Counted from the first letter of the stretch, positions 23,998 to 54,427 are shown. The stretch is DNA of 64,000 nt from Candidatus Nealsonbacteria bacterium (GCA_016188865.1 JACPGX010000002.1:130398-194397), one strand, 5' to 3'. The notes: generated from the letters alone by a model not told the origin. Made by a program: numbers and translations.

Positions 23998-24070
23998 TGG
24001 GTCCGGCGCGAATCGAACGCGCAACCTTGGCGTTAAGAGCGCCCTGCTCTGCCAATTGAGCTACGGACCC
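23998..24070 (-). tRNA. tRNA-Lys (anticodon CTT)
   Basis: Manual cloverleaf: GGGTCCG TA GCTC AATTGGC AGAGC A GGGCG CTCTTAA CGCCA AGGTT GCGCG TTCGATT CGCGC CGGACCC A. No encoded CCA. Confidence 0.9.
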
Positions 24071-24076
24071 CTTTGC

Positions 24077-24472
24077 TTATTGGACAGTGCATTGGATTTG
24101 GTACCATTGCAAGAGAGAGGGCGACGCAACAATTCCTGATTTAACTAAAACGGTATTAACTATAACCCAAGCGGCGAAAATAATCAAGAGGCCGATAACG
24201 ACCGAGGTGATTATACCCTGCGCCTGTCTTAGGGTATCCGGTTTAGCCCCGGCAAAAAGGAAAAGAACTCCGCCTACGACTAACATTAAAACCGCCACCG
24301 TTGGTACGACCCATTTGAAAAATTCCCTGACAATATTGTTAATCATCGTAAAAAAGTCGCAAAAAGTACAAGGGCTTTCTCCCGTTCCTCCGCAAGGCAC
24401 CAGCCCTGCAGCAGAACTGAAATTAGGCAGTAAAGCAATCAAAAACAAAAAGCTTATCAATATTATTTTCAT
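24077..24472 (-). CDS. T4SS pilin (VirB2/TrbC-like, LVPCG type)
   Basis: Signal peptide, AAGLVPCGG...PCTFCDFF, two TM helices, IGLLIIFAAWVIVNTVL. Confidence 0.7.
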   Translation of the reverse strand: MKIILISFLFLIALLPNFSSAAGLVPCGGTGESPCTFCDFFTMINNIVREFFKWVVPTVAVLMLVVGGVLFLFAGAKPDTLRQAQGIITSVVIGLLIIFAAWVIVNTVLVKSGIVASPSLLQWYQIQCTVQ

Positions 24473-24495
24473 ATTTTTATTATATCATAATTTAT

Positions 24496-24523
24496 GTTTC
24501 ACGTGAAACCCAGCTTAGCTGGG
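24496..24523. repeat. 14-bp palindrome GTTTCACGTGAAAC followed by the hairpin CCCAGCttaGCTGGG
   Basis: Read directly between the Fic stop and the pilin start. On the minus strand the second hairpin is followed by a short T-run (TTTCAC), so a terminator role is only weakly supported. Confidence 0.6.
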
Positions 24524-24531
24524 TGAAACTT

Positions 24532-25458
24532 TTATGCCTTACGTTCTAAAATTCCGAATCCATACGCAACCGCCTCGCATATAAAATTTTCCAATTGGCT
24601 GTGGTCGCCTTTGGTTTGCGCCTTATAAAGATAAGTATAATAAAGCTGTTTTTTTTCTTGGAGAATAACAGCCGGAGCAAGATTGGCTTCCAGAAGCATT
24701 GACTGCATAAGCAAGCGGCCAATACGGCCGTTACCGTCAGAAAAAGGATGAATTTGCTCGAATTGAGCGTGGATTTTAACCGATAAAGCGATTATATCAT
24801 CCGTAGTTTTAGCAGCTTCTTTAATAATGGCCGGCATAAGAACGGGGATTTTTAGATAATTGGCCGTCGGCAAATTAATACCGGTAATCCGTACGGCATG
24901 GCTGCGGTATAAGCCGGCGTCCGGTCTGATCCCGCTCATGAGAATAGCGTGGAGCTTTAATATCAAATTTTCATCTACAATGCCTCTCTCCAGCGCGTGA
25001 TTGAATAAATAATTTAGCGCTGTTTGGTGATTTTTAGCTTCCAGTTGTTCTGTTAAACTTTTGTCCGGCAAGGCGGCATTTTCAAAGAGAATAGCGGCCG
25101 TGTCCGGCTCAGTAAGTTTACTGCCCTCTATGCGATTGCTGTGGAAGGTGAGCTTTAGAATAAATTGGTCGCGGATATCAGGATTATTTAAAATTTCGGC
25201 AATAACGCTTTTGTGCTCCAACGACTTTTGGCGTAAAACTTCTTTTTTGGCATTAAGCTGTTCGGCCGGAATGATTTTTTGGCCAGTTACTTCCAGAAAT
25301 AATTCCTCAATAGCGGTTTGCATCTTGGGCCTGGGAGTAGATTTGCCGGTCCACCAGCTGTTGAATGCGGGAAAGGACACGCCGAGCTGTTCGGCTAATT
25401 TAGTCTGCGTAAGTCCTAACAATTTTTGGATAGTTTCGAGTTTTTGACGTAGGGTCAT
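24532..25458 (-). CDS. XRE-type HTH + Fic domain protein
   Basis: N-terminus LGLTQTKLAEQLGVSFPAFNSW (HTH); Fic motif HPFSDGNGRIGRLL. Confidence 0.85.
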   Translation of the reverse strand: MTLRQKLETIQKLLGLTQTKLAEQLGVSFPAFNSWWTGKSTPRPKMQTAIEELFLEVTGQKIIPAEQLNAKKEVLRQKSLEHKSVIAEILNNPDIRDQFILKLTFHSNRIEGSKLTEPDTAAILFENAALPDKSLTEQLEAKNHQTALNYLFNHALERGIVDENLILKLHAILMSGIRPDAGLYRSHAVRITGINLPTANYLKIPVLMPAIIKEAAKTTDDIIALSVKIHAQFEQIHPFSDGNGRIGRLLMQSMLLEANLAPAVILQEKKQLYYTYLYKAQTKGDHSQLENFICEAVAYGFGILERKA

Positions 25459-25467
25459 AATATTTAT

Positions 25468-25496
25468 ATTGTAGCAAACTTTATAAAGTTAGTCAA
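25468..25496 (-). promoter_or_regulatory. Sigma70-type promoter of the HTH-Fic gene (TTGACT-17-TACAAT)
   Basis: The minus strand reads TTGACTaactttataaagtttgcTACAAT. The spacer is occupied by a 14-bp palindrome. Confidence 0.6.
25477..25490. promoter_or_regulatory. Putative operator 1: perfect palindrome AACTTTATAAAGTT
   Basis: Sits exactly between the -35 and -10 elements of the HTH-Fic promoter. Confidence 0.55.
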
Positions 25497-25505
25497 AAAC
25501 AGCCG

Positions 25506-25519
25506 AACTTTATAAAGTT
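25506..25519. promoter_or_regulatory. Putative operator 2: identical palindrome AACTTTATAAAGTT
   Basis: Second exact copy, 29 bp centre-to-centre from operator 1. Confidence 0.55.
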
Positions 25520-25540
25520 AGGCAGTTACTGGTTTGTCTT

Positions 25541-25561
25541 GTTAGACATTGAATGTCTAAC
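25541..25561. repeat. 21-bp perfect palindrome GTTAGACATTGAATGTCTAAC (copy 1)
   Basis: An identical copy lies at 53069-53089. Both are located just 3' of a minus-strand tRNA. Confidence 0.85.
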
Positions 25562-25583
25562 GTTAATTCGTGAAACTTTTTTA

Positions 25584-25656
25584 TGCCCCCGGCAAGAGTC
25601 GAACTTGCAATCTTCTGCTTCGAAGGCAGACATGTTATCCATTACACCACGGGGAC
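25584..25656 (-). tRNA. tRNA-Arg (anticodon TCG)
   Basis: GTCCCCG TG GTGT AATGGATA ACAT G TCTGC CTTCGAA GCAGA AGAT TGCAAG-TTCGACT-CTTGC CGGGGGC A. T-arm boundaries are approximate. Confidence 0.85.
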
Positions 25657-25669
25657 GTCTTTTTATATT

Positions 25670-26608
25670 TTATCTCTTTCTTTCCCTTCCCTCCAAATAT
25701 CTTTTTAGCGCTTCTTTAGAGACTACCCAAATTCTACCTTCCTTATGAGCCTCTAATTTGCCGGTTCGGGCAAGAAGATTTAAATATTTAGGAGAATATT
25801 TAGTGCCCCTACTCAATTCTTCCAGTGATATAAATTTTTCTCTCGGTTTACCAGGAGTTAATACTTTAAGGTAAATATCAAGGGATCTTTCTACAGATTG
25901 GAAAATAAAACGGACAAAAGGTGTGGAGTCTTTTTTGTCGGCTTGAGCCAATGTATGATAGTATTTTTTTCTGTCATTTTTCAAGATAACAGAAAGAGGA
26001 TAGCCAGCCCTCATTAGTATGACATTCATTATTAATCTTGCAGTTCGGCCATTTCCGTCAAAGAAGGGGTGGATAGCCGTTATCTTGTGGTGGATAATTG
26101 CGGCTAGTTCAACCGGGTGGAGCTTTTTTTGATTTTTTCCGATCCATTTGATTAAATTTTCCATTAATTTTGGCACTTCAATGGCTTCAGGCGGTTTATG
26201 GTCGGCTCCGCCGATTAATACCGCGCTGTTTCTATATTTTCCGGCCCATTCTCTGTCAATATCTTGAGTCACTATTTGGTGGAATAACCTAATCAATCTT
26301 TCAGAGATTGTGTTTCGCTTATCTTTAGATACCGACTCGTATAAATAATCTAATGCTTCCTTATGGCTTTTTGCCTCAAGATGGTCTTTGAGGGGCTTGC
26401 CTTTTATTGTAATACCTTCATTAATAACTAAGTAGGTTTCTTTTAAAGTCAAACTGTTGCCCTCAATGGCATTGGAGTTATAGGTCATTTCTATCTCAAA
26501 CTGCTCCCGTATTTTTCTTACGGCAGATTCCGGCAATGGTCTGTACGAATTTAGAATTTTTAACTTTTCGTTTAGCCTCCCTCCTATTTTTTCTTCTAGG
26601 TAATGCAT
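25670..26608 (-). CDS. Fic domain protein with a C-terminal excisionase/MerR-like HTH
   Basis: Fic motif HPFFDGNGRTARLIMN. C-terminus ISLEELSRGTKYSPKYLNLLARTGKLEAHKEGRIWVVSKEAL. Confidence 0.85.
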   Translation of the reverse strand: MHYLEEKIGGRLNEKLKILNSYRPLPESAVRKIREQFEIEMTYNSNAIEGNSLTLKETYLVINEGITIKGKPLKDHLEAKSHKEALDYLYESVSKDKRNTISERLIRLFHQIVTQDIDREWAGKYRNSAVLIGGADHKPPEAIEVPKLMENLIKWIGKNQKKLHPVELAAIIHHKITAIHPFFDGNGRTARLIMNVILMRAGYPLSVILKNDRKKYYHTLAQADKKDSTPFVRFIFQSVERSLDIYLKVLTPGKPREKFISLEELSRGTKYSPKYLNLLARTGKLEAHKEGRIWVVSKEALKRYLEGRERKR

Positions 26609-26676
26609 GATCGCTTAATATGGTTTATCTATATTTTCATTGTACACCATATTAAAACAAAAAGCAACACAACCGA

Positions 26677-26705
26677 TTGAAAAAATCAAATTTTTGTGGT
26701 AGAAT
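26677..26705 (+). promoter_or_regulatory. Promoter of cca (TTGAAA-17-TGgTAGAAT)
   Basis: ttgaaaaaatcaaatttttgtggtagaat. Only 13 nt lie between the -10 and the ATG, and there is no SD. Confidence 0.55.
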
Positions 26706-26718
26706 TTAGTCAGTTATT

Positions 26719-28194
26719 ATGGTTATCCCAAAAGAAGTAAAATCCGTCATAGCAAAACTCAAAAAGAAAGGATATGAGGCATATATTGTCGGCGGCTGCG
26801 TCCGCGATTTTTTGCGTGGCGTAGAACCTAAAGATTGGGATATAACTACCAATGCCAAGCCGGAAGAAATCCGCAAGACCTTTGCTAGGAGTTTTTACGA
26901 GAACAAATTTTTAACCGTTACCGTTCAAACGGCTAGTAAAGACCCCACACTTAAGGAAATCGAGGTCACTACCTATCGATCAGAGGCAAAATATACAGAT
27001 AAAAGGCACCCAGACGAAGTGAAATATGCTAAAACCCTAGAAGAAGACTTGGCGAGGAGGGATTTTACGGTGAATGCGATGGCCGTGGGTTTAACACCCG
27101 GTGTTGCACGTGAAACACCGGGTGTTGAGGACCCGTTCGGCGGACAGAAAGACTTAGAAACTAAGTTCCTAAGAACGGTGGGCGAGCCGGAAGAGAGGTT
27201 TGGCGAAGACGCTCTGCGGATGATGAGAGCGGTAAGGTTTGCCGTCACCTTAGGCGAAGATTGGCAGATTGAGCCAAAAACAGCTGAAGCTATAAAGAAA
27301 AATGCCCCATGGCTTCAGGCGATTTCCCACGAGAGAGTTAGAGACGAACTATTGAAAATCATTATGTCGGAAAGGGCGATGGAGGGTATTAGCCTTTTAA
27401 GGGAGCTGACTTTACTAAAGTATATTATTCCGGAGCTTGAGGAGGGTTATGGGGTGGGGCAAAATAAACACCATATTTACAACTGCTACGAACATTCTTT
27501 GCTTTCTTTAAAATACGCTGCTCAAAAAGGGTTTAACATGGAAGTGAGATTATCTGCCCTGCTTCATGATGTGGGTAAGCCAAGAGCAAAGCGAGGCGAG
27601 GGTCAAGATTCCACTTTTTACAATCATGAAGTAATTGGCGCTAGAATGACAGCAGGTATTTTAAACCGTTTAAAATTTCCGACTAAAGAGATTGAGAAAA
27701 TAACAAAGCTGGTAAGATATCACCTTTTCTATTATAATGTGGATGAAGTGGGAGATTCTTCTGTCAGGAGGCTGGTCAGGCAGGTGGGGCCGGAAAACAT
27801 GGAAGAACTTTTGCAGGTAAGGATGTCTGACAGAATCGGCTCGGGCGTGCCTAAGGCCGAGCCGTATAAATTGCGACATTTGAAATACGTAGTTGAGAAA
27901 GTCAGCAGAGATCCGATTTCTGCCAAAATGCTCAAAGCGGATGGGAACGATGTAATGAAGCAGCTGAAAATTGGGCCGGGGCCGAAAATAGGACAAATTT
28001 TGGATGTCTTATTGGGACATGTCCTAAATGACCCGAAGAATAACAAAAAAGAGTGGCTTGAAAAAGAAATTGCCAAATTAGGCAAATTGAGCGATAAAGA
28101 GCTCAAGGATTTAGCCGAAGAGGGCCGCAAAGAACGAGAAAAACTGGAAACAAAACGCGATCAAATGACAAAAAGTAAATATTGGGTAACGTAG
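26719..28194 (+). CDS. cca: CCA-adding enzyme / poly(A) polymerase family with an HD domain, carrying an in-frame palindromic insert
   Basis: GGCVRDFLRG..PKDWDITT, RDFTVNAMA, DPFGG, HD motif LLHDVGKP. Confidence 0.9.
   Translation: MVIPKEVKSVIAKLKKKGYEAYIVGGCVRDFLRGVEPKDWDITTNAKPEEIRKTFARSFYENKFLTVTVQTASKDPTLKEIEVTTYRSEAKYTDKRHPDEVKYAKTLEEDLARRDFTVNAMAVGLTPGVARETPGVEDPFGGQKDLETKFLRTVGEPEERFGEDALRMMRAVRFAVTLGEDWQIEPKTAEAIKKNAPWLQAISHERVRDELLKIIMSERAMEGISLLRELTLLKYIIPELEEGYGVGQNKHHIYNCYEHSLLSLKYAAQKGFNMEVRLSALLHDVGKPRAKRGEGQDSTFYNHEVIGARMTAGILNRLKFPTKEIEKITKLVRYHLFYYNVDEVGDSSVRRLVRQVGPENMEELLQVRMSDRIGSGVPKAEPYKLRHLKYVVEKVSRDPISAKMLKADGNDVMKQLKIGPGPKIGQILDVLLGHVLNDPKNNKKEWLEKEIAKLGKLSDKELKDLAEEGRKEREKLETKRDQMTKSKYWVT
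27093..27126. repeat. In-frame palindromic element, copy C (core only)
   Basis: AACACCCGGTGTT gcacgtga AACACCGGGTGTT, encoding TPGVARETPGV in the loop between NAMA and DPFGG. Confidence 0.85.
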
Positions 28195-28236
28195 TAAAAA
28201 TTCAAAATTCAAAAATCAAATCTAAAAATTTACGAA

Positions 28237-28307
28237 CGGGGTGTAGTGTAATGGTAGCACGAGTCCTTCGGGAGGATTTAGTTGGAGTTCGACCCTCCAC
28301 ACCCCGA
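28237..28307 (+). tRNA. tRNA-Pro (anticodon CGG)
   Basis: CGGGGTG TA GTGT AATGGTA GCAC G AGTCC TTCGGGA GGATT TAGT TGGAG TTCGACC CTCCA CACCCCG A. Confidence 0.9.
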
Positions 28308-28316
28308 CAATAAACT

Positions 28317-28344
28317 TTGACAAGATTGTTTAAATTGGTAGACT
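28317..28344 (+). promoter_or_regulatory. Promoter (TTGACA-16-TAGACT) upstream of 28366
   Basis: ttgacaagattgtttaaattggtagact, followed by SD GAGGAGG. Confidence 0.55.
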
Positions 28345-28365
28345 AATTGGATTGAGGAGGGTGAA

Positions 28366-28767
28366 ATGATATACAATATTGTCCGTCCAGATACGGTTAT
28401 AAAAGTGGCAATGGAAAAAATAAGCGAGAAGAAGCAAACAATGTTTCCCATTGTTCACGCCAAAACCGGAGTTTATTGCGGCTACGTAACTAGAGACGAT
28501 ATTAATAAGTATTGCGTGAAATTTTACGGTGTCAGCGAAGAATCAATTACGATGATAGATGTCTTGTTTTGGGTGTTGGGAAAGCTTGGCCAGCCGAGGA
28601 ATATCAGCGTGTTTGAAGATACTTCGCAGACATTGTGTATCAAGATTATGCTTGTGAGCGGACTGCAATTTATACCAGTAATTGATTACGACGGCACCTA
28701 TCTTGGGACAATCGATGCGGAAGGGTTGAGAGAATTAACAGAATTTATTATAAAAAAACTAGAATAA
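28366..28767 (+). CDS. Small CBS-pair-like protein (tentative)
   Basis: 133 aa with two halves showing CBS-like patterns (FPIVHAKTGVYCGYVTRDDI / FIPVIDYDGTYLGTIDAEGL). Confidence 0.5.
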   Translation: MIYNIVRPDTVIKVAMEKISEKKQTMFPIVHAKTGVYCGYVTRDDINKYCVKFYGVSEESITMIDVLFWVLGKLGQPRNISVFEDTSQTLCIKIMLVSGLQFIPVIDYDGTYLGTIDAEGLRELTEFIIKKLE

Positions 28768-28832
28768 TAAAAGGGCGCTATTCTTTGAGGGTGGCGCTTT
28801 TTATAATGTTATTTATAATATATAATATATCA

Positions 28833-30263
28833 ATGATAAGCACGTGCCGGCAAAAAGGGCAAATTCAAATCGTTGTATTAGTAGTAGCTGTTTTAGTGAT
28901 TGCCGGAATTTATTTCGGGGCTCGTTTTTTTGGCAAATCTGACGGAGAACAAATTGGCAAAGAGAAAATAATCGAGAATTCAAATGATGATGTCCCGCCT
29001 CTGCGCACCAATCTTTTGCCGTCAGGCGTCCTTTCTTTGAATACTTCTAAAACTACCCTTACCCTGGTCACCGACGAGCCGGCCTATTGCCGTTATTCTA
29101 GCGAACCCGATCAAGCCTATATTAATATGTCAAAGGGGTTTGGGCCTGATAAAAATAAAACATCTCACAGCGTAAACGCCAGTGGTCTTGAAAACGGTAA
29201 GGTTTACAAATACCATGTCCGCTGCCAAGATATGGCAGGCAACAGGAATACCGAAGATGCTTTGATTGAGTTTAGCGTGGGGTCAGCTGTTTCACGTGAA
29301 ACAGCCGTTCTTTCTGCGCCGTTGCCGAGCGAAGCGCCGCCCACGCGGAGCAATCTCCTGCCCTCGGGCACTCTCTCCAGCGGTACCACTAAGACTACGA
29401 TTGGCCTCATCACCAATGAATCAGCTTATTGCCGTTATGCCAGCCAATCGCAGCCATACATTAATATGTCCAAGGGGTTTTCATCTGATAAAGATAAATT
29501 ACAGCACACAGCCACTGTTTCCGGACTGGCGGATAATAAAATTTACGAATATTATGTGCGCTGCCGCGATGTTAAGGGCAATGAGAATGACGATGATGCG
29601 ATAATCCGCTTTGGCATTGGCGGAGCTTCTGTCAATCAAACTCCTTTGGGGGCAGATGCCACGCCTCCCAATCGTTTTAGCGCTTCCCCAAGCGGCAGTT
29701 TGCCGGTAAGCACTCGCCAGACAAACATTAAACTTCAAACTGATGAAAAAGCCATTTGCAGATATAGCGAGACTGCCGGACTTGGCTATGATTCTATGAA
29801 GAATTTTTCTAATACTAATTCAACTTCTCATTTAGCGGAGATATTGGGATTGGATGAGGGCGGTTCTTATAAATTTTATGTGCGGTGCGCTGACCAGTAT
29901 GGCAATAAAAACACCAACGATTTCATTATTTCGTTCAAGGTAGAGACGGCAGAAGATGAAATCCCGCCTATTTTATCAAATCCTTCCCATAATGGAAATA
30001 TTTTGCCTTCCGGCACTGCCCAAGTTGTAATAAGCATCAGTACCAATGAGCCGTCTGCCTGCCGTTATTCTGCGAATGCAGGCACTGTTTACAATTCAAT
30101 GTCGGGAAGATTCTCTTATTATGACCAAACCCAAAAATTTCACACTAAAAGCGTTACCGGCCTGCAAAATGGCAGAGGATACGATTATTTTGTCCGCTGC
30201 CAAGACTTGGCAGGCAATGCAAACATCGGGGATGTTTTAATAAGTTTTAGCATAGCGCAGTAA
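28833..30263 (+). CDS. Membrane-anchored protein with four tandem ~100-aa repeats
   Basis: Repeat consensus is LPSG.LS..T..T.L.L.T.E.A.CRYS....Y..M...F......H...V.GL.....Y.Y.VRC.D..GN. Start chosen at MISTCRQ. Confidence 0.6.
   Translation: MISTCRQKGQIQIVVLVVAVLVIAGIYFGARFFGKSDGEQIGKEKIIENSNDDVPPLRTNLLPSGVLSLNTSKTTLTLVTDEPAYCRYSSEPDQAYINMSKGFGPDKNKTSHSVNASGLENGKVYKYHVRCQDMAGNRNTEDALIEFSVGSAVSRETAVLSAPLPSEAPPTRSNLLPSGTLSSGTTKTTIGLITNESAYCRYASQSQPYINMSKGFSSDKDKLQHTATVSGLADNKIYEYYVRCRDVKGNENDDDAIIRFGIGGASVNQTPLGADATPPNRFSASPSGSLPVSTRQTNIKLQTDEKAICRYSETAGLGYDSMKNFSNTNSTSHLAEILGLDEGGSYKFYVRCADQYGNKNTNDFIISFKVETAEDEIPPILSNPSHNGNILPSGTAQVVISISTNEPSACRYSANAGTVYNSMSGRFSYYDQTQKFHTKSVTGLQNGRGYDYFVRCQDLAGNANIGDVLISFSIAQ
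29286..29305. repeat. 20-bp perfect palindrome GCTGTTTCACGTGAAACAGC inside the CDS (encodes AVSRETAV)
   Basis: Read directly. It lies in the linker between repeat units 1 and 2 and shares GTTTCACGTGAAAC with 24496-24509. Confidence 0.8.
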
Positions 30264-30267
30264 TAAT

Positions 30268-30744
30268 ATGAAAATCCCTCATCAGCTTCAAAAATTAAGA
30301 AATATAGAAACAAGAATCAACAGAAACTTATTCCTAGTCTGTGCCGGCGTGACTTTAGCCGCCATGATCATGTCAATTCTGGAATTCTTTACCAGAGGCG
30401 CATTCCCGCCAGTTCAAATAGGATTTTTTTATATCGTGGTTTTAATTATTTATTCTTTGCATAAAGAAATAGTTAGGTGGCTTGGCGAAAGAAAGGTTGA
30501 AAGGCAGGGAGAATACTTTGTTTACGGCTGGGTAGTTATGGCAACCATTCTTTATTTAGTTAATTTTTTAAGCAAAAATTACTTCTCTTTTTCTGCTTTA
30601 GGGGAAAAAATGCCGGTCCTAAGAGATGTTTCCACGATTACCTTGGAAGTATTAGCTGTATTTATTTCCACTAGAATACTGAAATTGTTAAGAATTTTTT
30701 TGACTAAAAGAAAACTGCTAAAACATCTTAAAAATAACGAATAA
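30268..30744 (+). CDS. Hypothetical integral membrane protein
   Basis: 158 aa with four predicted hydrophobic helices. Confidence 0.5.
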   Translation: MKIPHQLQKLRNIETRINRNLFLVCAGVTLAAMIMSILEFFTRGAFPPVQIGFFYIVVLIIYSLHKEIVRWLGERKVERQGEYFVYGWVVMATILYLVNFLSKNYFSFSALGEKMPVLRDVSTITLEVLAVFISTRILKLLRIFLTKRKLLKHLKNNE

Positions 30745-30762
30745 TTAAAGATTTAAATCAAA

Positions 30763-31062
30763 ATGCGCATTGTTTTAAAATTTTCCGGAAATATGTATAA
30801 TCTAATGCGGCAGGCGGGCTATCATCCCCACGAAACCGGTGAGGAAAAATCCGGAGAGTCGTCATTCGCCCGCCGCCTTAGTATCGCGGATTACCCCAGA
30901 TTCCACGCTTATGTTGAGCTATCGGGGCAAGAACTGATAATTAATCTGCATCTTGATCAAAAAAAGCCGATTTACCGAGGAACTTCGGCTCACAGCGGAG
31001 AGTATGACGGTACTTTATTAGAAAAAGAAGCAGAGAGAATAAAGCAAATTGCGGGCCTGTAG
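30763..31062 (+). CDS. Hypothetical small protein
   Basis: 99-aa ORF. Its last 10 nt overlap the 5' end of tRNA-Ala. Confidence 0.45.
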   Translation: MRIVLKFSGNMYNLMRQAGYHPHETGEEKSGESSFARRLSIADYPRFHAYVELSGQELIINLHLDQKKPIYRGTSAHSGEYDGTLLEKEAERIKQIAGL

Positions 31063-31123
31063 TAAAGTGGCATTACGCGGCATTCGCATTGCCGAAGCGG
31101 GAGTTCGATTCTCCCCAGGTCCA
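31053..31123 (+). tRNA. tRNA-Ala (anticodon CGC)
   Basis: GGGCCTG TA GTAA AGTGGCA TTAC G CGGCA TTCGCAT TGCCG AAGC GGGAG TTCGATT CTCCC CAGGTCC A. The G3:U70 Ala identity pair is present. Confidence 0.9.
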
Positions 31124-31207
31124 CCGGCTATTGAAAACAAGAAGGTAATATGTAATAGTAAATTAATCAACAAGGTCGAAGTTTTATTAATAATAACAAA
31201 AAACATT

Positions 31208-50547: not shown

Positions 50548-51686
50548 TCAAAAAGTTGTATAATGCCACCCAATTTTAGACTCCGCGGGCATTTTAAATA
50601 GTTGATTAATAGATTGGTTTTGCAGTTGTCCCCGCAGCAGTTTTTGTTCCTGCCACTGCATCATAAATTGTACCGGAGATAGCTTGTTTTGGAAAGCGCA
50701 GTGGACTCTTTCTGTGTTGTAAAAAATCAGATAATCAACGAGCCTTCGGTTGAATTTGTCAGGATCAATCAAGAGATAGGCGAAGTAGTCGATGAATTCT
50801 TCCTGGATAGTCCGGTTAAATCTTTCGACATGAGTATTCATTTGAGGGCACTTGGGATAGGTGTGGTAATGGGTGAGGTGGAGTTCTCTCAACCTTTCGG
50901 CAAAATGCTTCTTAAATTCAGACCCGTTGTCGGTTAAAACCCAAAGAAGGTTGAATGAATACGGAAATACTTTAAGGCATAACTCAAAGAATTCTTCGGC
51001 TGCCTTAGAGGCGTGGGACTTGGTTGACCAAGCAAAGCTGAAGCGGGTATATATGTCTTCAAAAGTAATGACGTATCTGCGGCAGCCGTTGATTATCTTT
51101 TCTATCGTATCTAAAGCGATTAAATGGCCCGGGTATTCTGGTTTCAGGTCTTTTGGCTTCCTTAATACCTTCTGGCGCTTAATTGGCTTTATCTTGCCAA
51201 AGTGGGATATCTTCCTGGGAAACACCCTCATTTTATCTGGAGCGTCAGCGATAATCCGAGCAATAGTTCTCGGCTGAGGACACTTTAAATTGCTCGTCTT
51301 GCAGAAAGACGATAATAGAGGATAAATCTTTTCTGGGCCTAAGTTGGGGTGTTCTTCTATGTCTCTGATGCTCCTAATCTTCTGTCTTATCTCAAACGGC
51401 CAGATTCTCTTGCGTCTTGTTATGGGAACGCGTTTCTTGTCGTTAAGGGTCTCTAATTTACCACCTCCTTCTTTGAATTTCTTCTTCCAGAGAAAGAGAG
51501 TCGGCTTTTTTCTGGGAAAGCGTCCATTGTTGCCTCAAGGCCGTGCTTTTCCCAGAAGACTAATACCTTGGCCTTGTATTTGGCTTTTTCCGTAATCATA
51601 TACCGGTATCTTAACCCGTCGTTGTAGACGGTCAAAAACCCCTTGATGCCGGTATATTTGCAATGAATATGATTAAAAAACTCCAT
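50548..51686 (-). pseudogene. DDE (rve) transposase interrupted by a frame change at an A6 run (51506-51511)
   Basis: The N-terminal ORF (51686-51453) stops. The -1 frame continues KKPTLFLWKKKFKEGGGKLETLNDKKR... without stops into ORF 51231-50548 (DDE residues in LIALDT, TDNGSEF, ERFNRTIQEE). Confidence 0.7.
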
Positions 51687-51731
51687 GGCCTTACGGCCTG
51701 ACGGAGTCTAATATGTATCTGGCATTATGCA
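50557..51731 (-). mobile_element. IS element (~1.17 kb) of the rve/DDE (IS3/IS481-like) type with imperfect terminal inverted repeats
   Basis: IRs are TGTATAATGCCA...TTAGACTCCG (50557->) and TGCATAATGCCA...TTAGACTCCG (51731<-). The transposase lies inside. Confidence 0.7.
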
Positions 51732-52032
51732 TTTCCTCAGGCGACCATTCAGTTCTAAGTTTTTCATACACATACGACATCAAGGAATTATCAGTTTGCA
51801 ACTTCAAGGTGCGTCCGCGAAGGCTCTTCTCTTCCGCTTTTTCTTGAGCCTTTTCTGCTCTGTAAGATTTGGGATATCTGGCATTTCGCCAAACCTCACG
51901 AGTTACTGTACTGGGATGTCTGTTGATCCTGCCGGCTATTTCAGAGAAATCTTCTTCAACCCAGACTCCTCGACTAATTTCTTCCCTTTCGGCAAGGGTA
52001 AGCCTTTGATAAGTAGTAGTCATACCTTGCAT
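51691..52032 (-). pseudogene. IS30-family transposase N-terminal (HTH) fragment, truncated by the neighbouring IS
   Basis: LTLAEREEISRG......IAGRINRHPSTVTREVWRN...YRAEKAQ...LRTEWSPEE then diverges exactly at the IS inverted repeat. No catalytic domain follows. Confidence 0.65.
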
Positions 52033-52085
52033 TGTAATTCAGTCGAAGTTTTTGCGATAGTTTCTTGAACTCACGTTACAAAAAC

Positions 52086-52114
52086 TTGACAGATTAAAGT
52101 AATGGGTGTATAAT
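52086..52114 (+). promoter_or_regulatory. Consensus sigma70 promoter TTGACA-17-TATAAT
   Basis: ttgacagattaaagtaatgggtgtataat. Confidence 0.75.
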
Positions 52115-52150
52115 CTAGTAGAATAAAAAATCGCAGATAAGGAGGGCAAA

Positions 52151-52330
52151 ATGTTAGGCTTTTTTCTGGTTTTCGGTATTTGGTTTGCAGTGGGAGTACT
52201 TATGGGGGGATGTCTTGTATTAGATGAAATTGATGATTTTAGACTGAAAAGAAAAATGAGTAAGGAAGAATATAAAAAGTATAAAGAATACGAAGCAAGT
52301 GCAAACAACACTTATGGCGATCTGTTTTAG
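52151..52330 (+). CDS. Unannotated 59-aa single-TM protein
   Basis: SD AAGGAGGG sits 4 nt before the ATG. My translation is MLGFFLVFGIWFAVGVLMGGCLVLDEIDDFRLKRKMSKEEYKKYKEYEASANNTYGDLF. A consensus promoter lies upstream and a terminator downstream. Confidence 0.6.
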   Translation: MLGFFLVFGIWFAVGVLMGGCLVLDEIDDFRLKRKMSKEEYKKYKEYEASANNTYGDLF

Positions 52331-52454
52331 AAATCAAGACCTATTTATCCTTCGGTTTTCAGAAGTTAATGAAACCCTAGACCGCTAGGCACCGAATTAG
52401 ACCATTAGACACCGAGTGTTTAACAGACTAACTAACGATTTAATCAAGATAAAA

Positions 52455-52486
52455 TCCTAAGAGCACCAAAAACTCTTGGGCTTTTT
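52455..52486. terminator. Bidirectional terminator
   Basis: CCTAAGAGcaccaaaaaCTCTTGGGcttttt between the small + ORF and hicA. Confidence 0.6.
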
Positions 52487-52497
52487 GTTTTGGCCTC

Positions 52498-52716
52498 CTA
52501 TTTTTTGAGTAAATTGATAAAATCTTCTACCGACAGCTCGGCATCCCGTAATATTTTTCTTAAAAGACCCTTTCCTACAGTTTTGTGATCGTGTATAGTC
52601 AGCGATCTCTTAAGGGGATGGCCCAAACGAATATGGCTACCGCGTTGTCTAACTATGCGATAGCCAATCTTCATAAAAACTCGCGCAGCAATTCTTCCAG
52701 AAATAACGGGCAACAT
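52498..52716 (-). CDS. hicA: HicA-family mRNA interferase toxin
   Basis: 72 aa with G.RIVRQRGSHIRL.HP..R.LTI..H...VGKGLLRKILRDA. Confidence 0.8.
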   Translation of the reverse strand: MLPVISGRIAARVFMKIGYRIVRQRGSHIRLGHPLKRSLTIHDHKTVGKGLLRKILRDAELSVEDFINLLKK

Positions 52717-52738
52717 AAAAAATAAATAACAATAAAAA

Positions 52739-53047
52739 TTAGAGCGTAATTGTGTGTACGCTTAGCTCTCTGGGTTTATATGATTTAAGCATTTTCTGGT
52801 TTTCTTTCTCTTCTAAGCAAAGCCCAATAACCTCTCTAATGTTTTTGAGGCAGTCGTCTAAGGTTTTACCCTGAGAATAACATCCTTGAAATAATGGACA
52901 TTCGGCGATATAAAACCCATCCTCATCTTTTTCAATAATAACGGGAAACTGACGATTTTTAATATTAGTTAGAGAAAATTTCTTCATGGCTACATGATAA
53001 CTCCTTTTAAATTCTATGTCAAATTCTTGTGCTGGTTTATATGACAC
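52739..53047 (-). CDS. hicB: HicB-like antitoxin (UPF0150 fold)
   Basis: FPVIIEKDEDGFYIAECPLFQGCYSQGKTLDDCLKNIREVI. The true start may be the internal MKKFSL. Confidence 0.75.
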   Translation of the reverse strand: MSYKPAQEFDIEFKRSYHVAMKKFSLTNIKNRQFPVIIEKDEDGFYIAECPLFQGCYSQGKTLDDCLKNIREVIGLCLEEKENQKMLKSYKPRELSVHTITL

Positions 53048-53068
53048 CCTTCACTTAGGACTTGGAGT

Positions 53069-53089
53069 GTTAGACATTGAATGTCTAAC
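53069..53089. repeat. 21-bp perfect palindrome GTTAGACATTGAATGTCTAAC (copy 2)
   Basis: Identical to 25541-25561. Lies between tRNA-Gly and hicB. Confidence 0.85.
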
Positions 53090-53099
53090 ATATTGTTTG

Positions 53100-53170
53100 A
53101 GCGGGTGATGGGAATCGAACCCACGTAATCTGATTGGAAATCAGAGGCACTGCCATTGTGCTACACCCGC
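53100..53170 (-). tRNA. tRNA-Gly (anticodon TCC)
   Basis: GCGGGTG TA GCAC AATGGC AGTGC C TCTGA TTTCCAA TCAGA TTAC GTGGG TTCGATT CCCAT CACCCGC T. Confidence 0.9.
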
Positions 53171-53224
53171 CTTCGCTCGCTGAAGCGAGCTACGGCGGGC
53201 AGGCCCGCTAGCTCGCGTAAGCGA

Positions 53225-53415
53225 TGGTCGGAGAGTCGGGATTTGAACCCGAACTAAATCCTCCCCCGCCTGCTAGCGCCTTGAGCCTTCGGAGTACTCG
53301 GATTCGAACCGAGACTAAATCCTCCCAAAGGACTCGTGCTACCATTACACCATACTCCGGCGCAGGCGATTGGCGGGCAGGCAAAGGACTCGTGCTGCCG
53401 TTACACTACTCTCCG
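53225..53415 (-). tRNA. Interrupted tRNA-Pro: matched 5' and 3' halves separated in the anticodon loop by a 117-nt insert; encodes a 3' CCA
   Basis: 5' half is CGGAGAG TA GTGT AACGGCA GCAC G AGTCC TT. 3' half is GGGGA GGATT TAGT TCGGG TTCAAAT CCCGA CTCTCCG A CCA. The acceptor and anticodon stems of the halves are perfectly complementary. Confidence 0.6.
53289..53359 (-). tRNA. tRNA-Pro (anticodon TGG), nested inside the interrupted tRNA-Pro
   Basis: CGGAGTA TG GTGT AATGGTA GCAC G AGTCC TTTGGGA GGATT TAGT CTCGG TTCGAAT CCGAG TACTCCG A. Confidence 0.9.
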
Positions 53416-53423
53416 TATTTCGC

Positions 53424-53452
53424 AGTTTAGCATATTTTAATTTGGTTTTCAA
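53424..53452 (-). promoter_or_regulatory. Promoter TTGAAA-17-TAAACT for the tRNA-Pro/Pro/Gly cluster
   Basis: The minus strand reads ttgaaaaccaaattaaaatatgctaaact, ending 8 nt before the first tRNA nucleotide. Confidence 0.6.
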
Positions 53453-54427
53453 ATGAGAAAATGGTATAATTATAATGTGAGTTTTAAATGGATTTCGGAG
53501 GAATTGAATATTTTTAACAAGTGCCGGCAATATAGGCTCCGCCTTAAAGATTGCCCTCAGTTTTTGTTTCTCATAATGGGCATAGTTATTTCCGGTTCGG
53601 CTTTCACCACTTATGCCTTAGGCACTCGTTATTTTGTTGTAGAGCCAACCACAGTTTCTTTAATTGTCTTGGTTGTAACGGGAGTTTTGCTGATTATCAC
53701 TTTCAGCATTGTCAGGAGCATGGAAGGATTGGCTGAAGCGTCAAGATTAAAATCAGAATTTATCAGCATAGTTTCCCACCAGTTAAGGTCGCCCCTTTCT
53801 AATTTGAGGTGGGCCGCAGAAGTTTTAGTTTCGAAAGATTTTGGCGAGCTTGCGCCAAAACAAAAAGAATACTTAAAAATCATCCAGGAAAATAACGGGC
53901 GAATGGGCGAATTGGTTACCGACCTTTTGATGGTTTCCCGAATTGATGAAGGCAAGCTGCTTTTTGATAAAATTAAGTTTTCCTTAGAAGATTTGGCAAA
54001 AGAGGTTATTAACGGATTAAAAGTTTTAGCCGAAGCATCCAATGTGGCAATCAACCTTGAAGTTTCAGAAATTTTGCCGCAAGTTTGCAGTGATTATAAA
54101 ATGATTAAAATAGTCGTGGAAAATCTTCTAGACAATGCCATTCGCTATATCAAAGAAAAGGGCAAGGTATTTATAAAAATAAATAATAAAAATGATCATT
54201 TGCTTTTTGAAATAAGAGATACGGGAGTGGGTATTCCCAAGGACGACCAAAGGCATATTTTTCAGAAATTTTTCCGATCTCAAAATATTTTAAGGCAGCA
54301 GACTTTGGGCTCGGGCCTCGGCTTGCATATAACAAAATCAATTATAGAAAAATCCGGAGGTAAAATATGGTTTAAAAGCCAAGAGGGGGTTGGGTCGACC
54401 TTCTGGTTTACTTTGCCAATAAAATAA
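53453..54427 (+). CDS. Membrane histidine kinase (no obvious sensor domain)
   Basis: Two TM helices; H-box VSHQLRSPL; DNAIRY, DTGVGI, GLGLHI. The true start may be internal. Confidence 0.8.
   Translation: MRKWYNYNVSFKWISEELNIFNKCRQYRLRLKDCPQFLFLIMGIVISGSAFTTYALGTRYFVVEPTTVSLIVLVVTGVLLIITFSIVRSMEGLAEASRLKSEFISIVSHQLRSPLSNLRWAAEVLVSKDFGELAPKQKEYLKIIQENNGRMGELVTDLLMVSRIDEGKLLFDKIKFSLEDLAKEVINGLKVLAEASNVAINLEVSEILPQVCSDYKMIKIVVENLLDNAIRYIKEKGKVFIKINNKNDHLLFEIRDTGVGIPKDDQRHIFQKFFRSQNILRQQTLGSGLGLHITKSIIEKSGGKIWFKSQEGVGSTFWFTLPIK

Follow-up and report, generated by a model that had tools for sequence, protein, structure and literature searches.

Disrupted tRNA genes, whether intron-containing, split or permuted, are central to debates on the origin of tRNA and are regarded as an archaeal and eukaryal trait, and self-splicing introns are, to our knowledge, the only introns in bacterial tRNAs. 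Here we describe a new, recurrent form of disrupted tRNA gene in Bacteria, a nest, in which a complete tRNA-Pro(UGG) gene lies inside the anticodon loop of another tRNA-Pro gene. The nest is located in a stretch of 64,000 nucleotides from Candidatus Nealsonbacteria (GCA_016188865.1 JACPGX010000002.1:130398-194397), phylum Patescibacteria (candidate phyla radiation, CPR), that was analysed as a whole and is called the window in the following. L-numbers (L007–L051) denote the relative loci compared with it. The two outer tRNA halves are referred to as the shell, and the two spacers s1 and s2, which enclose the inner tRNA, as the strands of a stalk.

In Archaea, disrupted tRNA genes comprise non-canonical bulge–helix–bulge (BHB) introns as well as the split and tri-split tRNAs of Nanoarchaeum and Caldivirga. 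Summaries of these archaeal genes are available (PMC10714607, PMC3218864). Like them, the nest has a tRNA body broken in or beside the anticodon loop and GC-rich complementary sequences at the break that can hold the halves, and nest shells contain extra short inserts at 26/27, 40/41 or in the T loop. In contrast, the nest has a bacterial host, forms one transcription unit with the halves 117 nt apart and lacks a BHB; its insert is a complete functional tRNA for the same amino acid, and its outer gene is often anticodon-less and decaying in relatives. With the split genes of Nanoarchaeum in particular it shares complementary GC-rich sequences adjoining the break (11–14 bp in all 12 parsed lineages) but not the separate loci with promoters of their own, since the window has one promoter-like site.

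The core of group I introns, P3–P9, typically comprises 200 nt or more. In Patescibacteria, group I introns interrupt tRNA-Asn and tRNA-Asp (PMC13011429), i.e., they occur in the same phylum as the nest, also in the anticodon loop and also in genes that standard annotation misses. They are inserted at 35/36, whereas the nest insert is found at 33/34 or 34/35. Unlike these introns, the nest insert is 117 nt long, has no group I core, resides in tRNA-Pro and carries a tRNA.

Integrative elements that insert at tRNA genes supply a substitute for the segment they displace. The nest is similar in that a resident tRNA is disrupted while its function is kept by the incoming copy, that leftover fragments form decaying direct repeats, and that the locus is a recombination hot spot (insertion sequence and HicAB DNA adjoin it in the window, and an allele replacement separates L038 from L039). 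However, the nest insert of about 110–120 nt contains no integrase and created no target duplication; it brings a whole tRNA rather than a 3' segment, leaves 5' as well as 3' orphan halves in a nested, not a tandem, arrangement, and its flanks are complementary and conserved as a helix. Between the halves there are only stalk and tRNA, and no integrase-bearing element of the type that separates an intact tRNA from a displaced partial copy at an attachment-site relic. Finally, bacterial rRNA operons contain leader–trailer processing stalks, and 23S rRNA contains intervening sequences. There, too, a long flanking helix presents an RNA for processing or an extended hairpin replaces a loop of the host; in the nest, however, host and presented RNA are both tRNAs.

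The first-pass annotation of the window had described a five-part nested tRNA-Pro on the minus strand at 53415–53225, and this description was correct to the base. With the promoter-like site in front, the parts are:

53424..53452, minus strand: promoter-like site TTGAAA-17 nt-TG-TAAACT (sigma-70-like), whose end precedes the outer tRNA 5' end by 8 nt
53384..53415, minus strand: outer tRNA-Pro 5' half, CGGAGAG-TA-GTGT-AACGGCA-GCAC-G-AGTCC-TT, i.e., acceptor 5' strand, D arm, anticodon-stem 5' strand and TT
53360..53383, minus strand: stalk 5' strand s1, 24 nt, TGCCTGCCCGCCAATCGCCTGCGC, which includes the 11-mer GCCTGCCCGCC
53289..53359, minus strand: inner complete tRNA-Pro(UGG), 71 nt, found by ARAGORN as tRNA-Pro(tgg) and by Rfam as RF00005
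53267..53288, minus strand: stalk 3' strand s2, 22 nt, AGGCTCAAGGCGCTAGCAGGCG, pairing with s1
53225..53266, minus strand: outer tRNA-Pro 3' half with encoded CCA, from the rest of the anticodon loop to the discriminator A

The insert hence measures 24 + 71 + 22 = 117 nt. The outer 3' half continues from the loop remainder through anticodon-stem 3' strand, variable loop, T arm and acceptor 3' strand to the A and to CCA, which is encoded after the outer gene only. All four stems (acceptor, D, anticodon and T) pair between the outer halves. The outer acceptor sequence is CGGAGAG...CUCUCCGACCA, with the 5' end CGGAGAGUAGUGUAACGGCAG... and the 3' end ...CCCGACUCUCCGACCA; across the insert site, the joined outer gene would read GAGUCCUUU followed by GGGAGGAUU, and the T arms are UCGGGUUCAAAUCCCGA in the outer and CUCGGUUCGAAUCCGAG in the inner gene. 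In intron mode, ARAGORN read all 191 nt as one tRNA-Pro(GGG) with a 115-nt intron at 34/35. Both in this mode and on the joined sequence, removal of the insert restored a 7-nt anticodon loop, as predicted, and the joined outer gene forms a cloverleaf with the proline identity elements G35, G36, G37, C1:G72 and A73. The inner gene matched RF00005 over its full length (model positions 1–71) with 63.0 bits at a gathering threshold of 29. As judged from sequence, the inner tRNA-Pro(UGG) is the working gene of the nest.

The minimum free energy (MFE) fold of the 191 nt shows the outer cloverleaf, an anticodon stem that runs on into the stalk, and the inner cloverleaf at the tip, which is the fold that had been proposed. 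Its energy is −81.2 kcal/mol (z = −3.4), and none of 200 shuffles was as stable. For the s1 × s2 duplex, −25.2 kcal/mol were obtained compared with −15.0 ± 3.7 for shuffles. The stalk is kept in the relatives by compensatory change, in spite of differing sequences in all parsed lineages. As the promoter-like site ends 8 nt before the outer 5' end, the outer 5' half marks the start of the transcript; a site TTGAC(C/T)-17-TAnnnT lies directly 5' of the outermost 5' half in L014, L032 and L033.

Other assemblies and relatives showed that the outer halves are a real tRNA-Pro body and not an artefact of assembly or duplication. In the Logan assemblies SRR12113419 and SRR12113430, promoter, outer 5' half, s1 and inner 5' half are reproduced base for base; the contigs of this strain end inside the tRNAs, and independent same-strain support hence covers junction 1 and does not extend to junction 2. 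The same architecture occurs in an independent contig of the Joint Genome Institute (L032), in which s1 is identical at 23/24 positions. We scanned for further nests with a pattern of two copies of the anticodon-stem 5' strand spaced 30–60 nt apart, an arrangement impossible for tandem genes. Nests were found in five GTDB species genomes (L007, L009–L012), labelled Saccharibacteria, Parcubacteria or Patescibacteria, and in about ten more distinct metagenome loci (L013–L036); the other matches had arisen by chance in coding or repeat DNA. About 15 other Patescibacteria lineages are thus nested, some of them with two or three levels. Most nests occupy the locus equivalent to that of the window, divergent from the genes for histidine kinase, response regulator and PilB and upstream of tRNA-Gly, with identities to the window of 43–58% for the kinase and 62–76% for PilB (64–84% for PilB all-against-all). 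The L034 nest resides at another locus, a tRNA-Pro(CGG) gene syntenic with the one at 28237 in the window: the series tRNA-Lys(CTT), tRNA-Arg(TCG), tRNA-Pro(CGG), tRNA-Ala(CGC) is shared by both (window 23998–31125; L034:1659–7615), with a Pro(CGG) gene that is nested in L034 but plain in the window.

Three levels were seen in L016:315–40 (minus strand), in L013:1996–1763 (minus strand; L013/L021) and in L025:1–354. L016 starts with the 5' half of an allele C with a hairpin insert, followed by the 5' half of an allele A with a larger insert and an intact allele C tRNA; its outermost and innermost genes have identical 5' halves. The third-level shell is degenerate in L013/L021 and L025; in L016 it shows the hairpin insert only. 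Among 59 tRNAs of the fetched loci, half copies of the same allele were found for tRNA-Pro only, and nesting as a general feature of all tRNAs was hence rejected. In L032, two orphan tRNA-Gly 5' halves, found by eye, precede an intact tRNA-Gly (L032:7412–7378, minus strand, and about 60 nt upstream); both break at the anticodon loop, and the nearer one is followed by the GC-rich, s1-like sequence CCGCCTGCCATCG... Stacking of half genes is therefore not strictly limited to tRNA-Pro. The nest pattern had no match in the viral contigs scanned, and a phage origin was rejected for this reason. Full-text searches of the accessible literature library brought up the group I introns in Patescibacteria tRNAs and the split or permuted tRNAs of Archaea, but no report of a tRNA within a tRNA, and none of a BHB or a splicing endonuclease in Patescibacteria.

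Where do the two tRNAs come from? Joined in silico, the outer gene of the window is identical at 68/71 positions to the stand-alone tRNA-Pro(UGG) of the orthologous locus L039, and the inner gene, again at 68/71 positions, to the stand-alone gene of the orthologous locus L048. Over the outer 5' half, identity is 32/32 with the 5' part of the L039 gene and also with an orphan 5' half in L033. The first-pass annotation had taken the compensated differences between outer and inner gene as evidence of a co-evolving outer tRNA; since each of the two stands alone in a relative, they are instead the differences between two ordinary tRNA-Pro(UGG) alleles. When all inner and outer bodies were clustered, inner and outer sequences interleaved. 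One and the same allele can thus be inner in one lineage and outer in another, as for L010 inner and L013 outer (97%), L011 outer and L013 inner (97%), or the window outer and L025 inner (94%).

The insertion is clean, without target duplication, at 33/34 or 34/35. Of the three differences between the outer gene and L039, two make up one compensated T-stem pair and the third is the wobble base, which no longer differs once the insert is assigned to the position between T34 and G35 (TCCTTT / GCCTGCC...GCAGGCGG / GGGAGG, slashes marking the insert ends). Most simply, the insertion point would lie between T34 and G35, and the T at 53383 is probably, by homology, T34 of the outer gene. Placed at 34/35, the insert leaves an outer gene that matches the L039 UGG gene but for the compensated T-stem pair. 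UGG is therefore the parsimonious outer anticodon and GGG is not needed, which also weakens the idea of a GGG anticodon as a non-redundant function of the outer gene.

Because the nest pattern is biased toward intact shells, the locus was also sampled through homologues of the kinase, yielding nine distinct orthologous loci. In seven of them, including the complete Nealsonbacteria genome L042, a plain tRNA-Pro follows directly behind the promoter; L039 has its plain gene behind a 34-nt possible relic leader, and in L041 the tRNA-Pro is located between shell stubs (5' CGGAG..., 3' ...AAATCCCGGCTCTCCGA). None of the nine loci contains an intact nest, and the shell is absent or decayed in every one. 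This rules out an ancient, universally conserved nest and speaks against an indispensable outer gene. Furthermore, L038 (1874–2000) and L039 (1840–2000) encode an identical histidine kinase protein and differ by one mismatch in the promoter; their homology breaks at tRNA position +1, beyond which they have unrelated tRNA-Pro genes, different tRNA-Gly alleles and different downstream genes. We read this break as a recombination boundary at the tRNA start. From the unbiased sample and this allele swap it follows that the shell is dispensable and decaying, and that turnover at the locus is fast.

An outer proline anticodon is kept in the window, L032, L010, L011 (TGGAA), L012, L016 and L034. In L009, L013, L014, L025, L026 and L029, the outer 3' junction instead pairs fully with the 5' junction (e.g., TTCTT/AAGAA), so that no proline anticodon can be restored. 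When the outer genes of these six out of 12 parsed relatives were joined, ARAGORN reported another or no anticodon for five and did not recognise one, and conservation of the outer anticodon loop is not supported. Decay extends to other parts of the shell. In L026 the D arm is deleted and the T loop contains 66 nt, stem mismatches occur in L009 and L025, and L031 has one 5' half with three inserts. Shell inserts of 20–55 nt at 26/27, 40/41, in the variable loop or in the T loop were found in L010, L011, L012, L014, L016, L025, L029 and L034, and orphan 5' halves without a 3' partner in L007, L031 and L033. The inner gene of the parsed nested loci, by comparison, is always intact, and no inner tRNA has an insert. 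In L035:5503–5573, a population variant of L010 (compared with L010/L022/L023/L036), inner and outer 3' halves have recombined, with the result that s2 is deleted and an orphan outer 5' half is left next to a chimeric tRNA-Pro of inner 5' half, outer T arm and acceptor 3' strand.

Our preferred reading, which we hold with slightly better than even confidence, is that a stalk-flanked tRNA-Pro(UGG) cassette inserted in the anticodon loop of a formerly ordinary tRNA-Pro(UGG), leaving a shell that is dispensable and an outer gene that is not spliced. One promoter would then give rise to a single precursor of outer 5' half, stalk strand, inner tRNA, stalk strand, outer 3' half, spacer and tRNA-Gly. 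RNase P and 3'-end processing enzymes would free the inner tRNA for decoding, and the outer halves would stay behind as a paired, tRNA-shaped leader and trailer, without being joined into a working tRNA. The stalk may be retained for clean folding of the inner tRNA amid near-identical half-tRNA sequences. Predictions give modest support to such a role, as shuffling of the stalk lowered the predicted pairing of the inner acceptor stem, modestly, in 12/12 loci. Deletion of either outer half altered this predicted pairing in the window only and not in the 11 other loci; protection of inner folding by the outer halves was thus rejected as a general effect. Over evolutionary time, insertion would recur, because the newcomer offers the same target, and would produce two or three levels, with older shells decaying by loop loss, deletions, hairpin insertions and recombination with the inner copy.

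A number of observations weigh against this reading. No insertion mechanism or enzyme was identified. A core of the tyrosine-recombinase type was considered and rejected, as the stem-to-stalk sequences at the two junctions are, by inspection, not identical and have no simple shared overlap. Moreover, the shells are very intact. In the 11 lineages used for statistics on stem pairs and signature bases, 99.1% of stem cells are standard pairs (100% in acceptor and T stems), double changes occur in 8 of 21 pairs, and the signature bases of D loop and T loop are invariant. The stem covariation score is 0.386 versus 0.178 in shuffles, and none of 500 shuffles reached it. Such intactness is explained equally well by selection for a tRNA-like shape and by the shells being young. 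The window shell is without any defect and ends in CCA, the L032 shell is flawless as well, and CCY makes up half of the proline codons in the window. The s1 strand is identical at 23/24 positions between window and L032 although their PilB proteins are 73% identical, which hints at a sequence-specific role. In addition, old shells are under-sampled, as the search pattern for nests detects only shells in which an 8-mer is still intact.

A further point of this kind is a family of 30-nt hairpins, CCCCG-N-RAGC-RRA-GCTY-N-CGGGG with a bulged A and a short tail, located at 26/27, at 40/41 or in the T loop of shells from L010 (4340–4306), L026 (4033–4108), L034 (5375–5413; coordinates approximate), L011, L012, L016 and L031. 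In 279 kb searched on both strands, all 11 occurrences of the core RAGCRRAGCTY, from seven lineages, lie inside outer tRNA-Pro shells and in tRNA sense, and we hence rejected a genome-wide repeat of the repetitive extragenic palindromic (REP) or miniature inverted-repeat transposable element (MITE) type. The same hairpin occupies the same position in L011, at a UGG locus, and in L034, at a CGG locus, with one compensated change. A hairpin family confined to shells and to one orientation looks more like an RNA-level element than like random decay.

These points lend some weight to a second explanation, which we consider possible but rather unlikely: the shell could be a selected, non-decoding tRNA-like scaffold with a positive role in the production of the inner tRNA or with a separate function. 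Its elbow and acceptor might attract RNase P, 3'-end enzymes or the CCA-adding enzyme, or they might make the precursor more stable. A scaffold would explain why the body is kept even where the anticodon loop is gone (L013, L014, L029), why the signature bases of both loops do not vary and acceptor and T stems always pair, and why s1 is conserved at sequence level between window and L032. By inspection, the shells of L011 and L014 differ at about 3/66 positions since their common nested ancestor, which is no more than their inner genes differ, whereas unpaired parts of the spacers have diverged strongly. However, relatives manage without a shell at the seven of nine plain loci, among them the complete genome L042; the L026 nest persists without a D arm and with 66 nt in its T loop, orphan 5' halves persist without partners, and inner folding shows no general predicted dependence on the outer halves. 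It is because of the intact shells, the conserved s1, the low divergence of the L011 and L014 shells, the hairpins found only in shells, the CCY codons and the number of tRNA-Pro genes, three in most complete Patescibacteria genomes (Table S2, PMC13011429), that we keep the scaffold in consideration at this level and real splicing as an improbable option.

In the latter case, the outer gene would be a working, intron-containing cis-split tRNA-Pro with a GGG or UGG anticodon. RNase P and RNase Z would excise the inner tRNA, the complementary tails would hold the halves, and an endonuclease and a ligase would trim and join them. We judge this to be improbable. It agrees with the defect-free shells of window and L032, which are perfect tRNA-Pro when joined, with a proline anticodon at the 3' junction of seven lineages (NGGGA; TGGAA in L011), where variation falls mostly on position 34 (T, C, G) and L034 has C at its CGG locus, and with the covarying stems. 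The geometry is like that of the Nanoarchaeum split-tRNA intermediate, and the 50% of CCY among proline codons and the three tRNA-Pro genes of most complete Patescibacteria genomes are in line with it as well.

The junctions themselves argue otherwise, for both are located at the base of one continuous helix. A BHB, i.e., two 3-nt bulges 4 bp apart, is absent from the sequence of this nest as well as from its MFE and centroid folds, and a BHB intron was rejected on geometry; junctions of the L010 type are, by inspection, a continuous wobble-rich helix without bulges. The cut that splicing needs, with a 4-nt 5' overhang, has a geometry opposite to that of RNase III, and we know of no bacterial enzyme for a cut of this type. 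Group I introns (RF00028) gave no hit at the gathering threshold, nor at E-values up to 10 within 52900–53700. No other Rfam family matched the insert either, 71/117 nt of which are tRNA, and a group I or other Rfam-type intron was accordingly discarded. Ten scanned open reading frames (ORFs) adjoining the locus contain no EndA- or RtcB-type domains. Splicing is further at odds with the outer loop being destroyed in 6/12 relatives whose shells are otherwise intact, with the missing or decayed shell at 9/9 unbiased orthologous loci, with an outer anticodon that, by L039 homology, is UGG and duplicates the inner one, and with hairpin inserts and deletions that are confined to shells. The splicing or split-tRNA maturation put forward in the first-pass annotation is thus not supported. 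Limited to the window and the L032 lineage, the proposal that the outer gene is still expressed as a second tRNA-Pro, with the inner tRNA acting as an intron cut out by the usual tRNA-processing enzymes and the halves, held by the stalk, being trimmed and ligated by a bacterial activity, appears slightly more doubtful still from the sequences at hand. If true, Bacteria would thereby have their first example of protein-dependent tRNA splicing or of cis-split tRNA maturation.

That two tRNA-Pro alleles were fused by chimeric assembly or strain collapse is hardly credible and was rejected, for although short-read contigs break inside these tRNAs and several alleles coexist in one sample series (L048–L051, related SRR12113xxx runs), the parts are joined by unique spacers, junction 1 was recovered in at least two other runs, and many independent assemblies show the same architecture across projects and assemblers, with compensatory variation in the stalk.

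Downstream of the nest, the operon continues with the following features:

53171..53224, minus strand: GC-rich structured spacer of 54 nt from outer tRNA-Pro to tRNA-Gly, with a second copy of the 11-mer inside
53099..53170, minus strand: tRNA-Gly(UCC), the downstream gene of the same operon, which follows the tRNA-Pro locus in nearly all related loci
53068..53090, minus strand: perfect 11-bp palindrome after tRNA-Gly, with no T run on the tRNA strand

The palindrome may mark the end of the transcription unit. The Pro–Gly spacer folds into the hairpins GCGGGC-CT-GCCCGC and GCTCGC-TTCA-GCGAGC. The 11-mer GCCTGCCCGCC of s1, whose recurrence had been noted before, is indeed repeated exactly at 53194–53204; with up to one mismatch, 4 matches were observed versus 0.68 expected. 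It is part of a motif common to s1 and to tRNA spacers of these operons: YTTGCCCGCC opens the s1 strands of L007 and of the third-level L025 shell, and the Pro–Gly spacers of the window (as CTGCCCGCC), L031 and L048 also contain it. Overall, s1 and s2 resemble the two arms of GC-rich inter-tRNA operon hairpins in permuted order, and 53194–53210 in the window, for instance, looks like the end of an s2 joined to the start of an s1. We may thus speculate that the mobile unit was a tRNA with half-spacers from a tandem tRNA array.

The Pro–Gly spacer (window:53171–53224; L031:2978–3040; L048:1306–1372) is conserved in genomes with about 75% PilB identity. Its last 40 nt are identical to the window at 38/40 positions in L031 and likewise in L048, where the tRNA-Pro is not nested, and base pairing is possible between the 5' part of the spacer and the start of tRNA-Gly. 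Segments of 100–134 nt with 14-nt inverted-repeat ends, CCCCGTTAGAAGTC...GACTTCTAACGGGG, adjoin gene starts or promoters (L010:2321–2454; L031:3340–3473; L014:6232–6331; in L032 and L033 upstream of the tRNA promoter). They have no Rfam match, and the arms of their inverted repeats share their sequence with the stalk arms of L011 and L013.

The genes near the locus are bacterial and encode RNase Y, two-component systems and type IV pilus proteins. The histidine kinase beside the nest has 100% identity to an NCBI protein of a Candidatus Nealsonbacteria MAG, in agreement with a host from Patescibacteria. Between tRNA-Gly and the RNase Y side, the window contains an rve-integrase ORF, an HTH_38 ORF and a HicA/HicB pair (50548–53047); the rve-domain ORF at 50548–51231 lies on the far side of tRNA-Gly and not within the nest. 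In L039 and L042, tRNA-Gly is immediately followed by RNase Y, and L038 has an rve ORF at this place. The tRNA locus is a hot spot for insertions. At L046:1388–1317 (minus strand), the orthologous locus has a plain tRNA-Pro with the anticodon CGG and an 8-nt D loop, not the usual UGG gene.

With the nest, a recurrent fourth form of disrupted tRNA gene appears in a bacterial phylum, a whole tRNA enclosed by another at its anticodon loop, with as many as three levels and a conserved stalk. Even if the shell is a relic, the pattern points to a process by which a tRNA-Pro cassette is repeatedly put precisely in the anticodon loop of a resident tRNA-Pro and so replaces the gene. This would be gene turnover via self-targeting insertion, without a recognisable enzyme. 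For Patescibacteria, the nest is also an annotation trap, in which tools give the inner gene only or make chimeric calls. If the shell is processed into a tRNA, the nest would represent a new bacterial RNA-splicing pathway. The nest is thus of interest for both the evolution and the annotation of tRNA genes.

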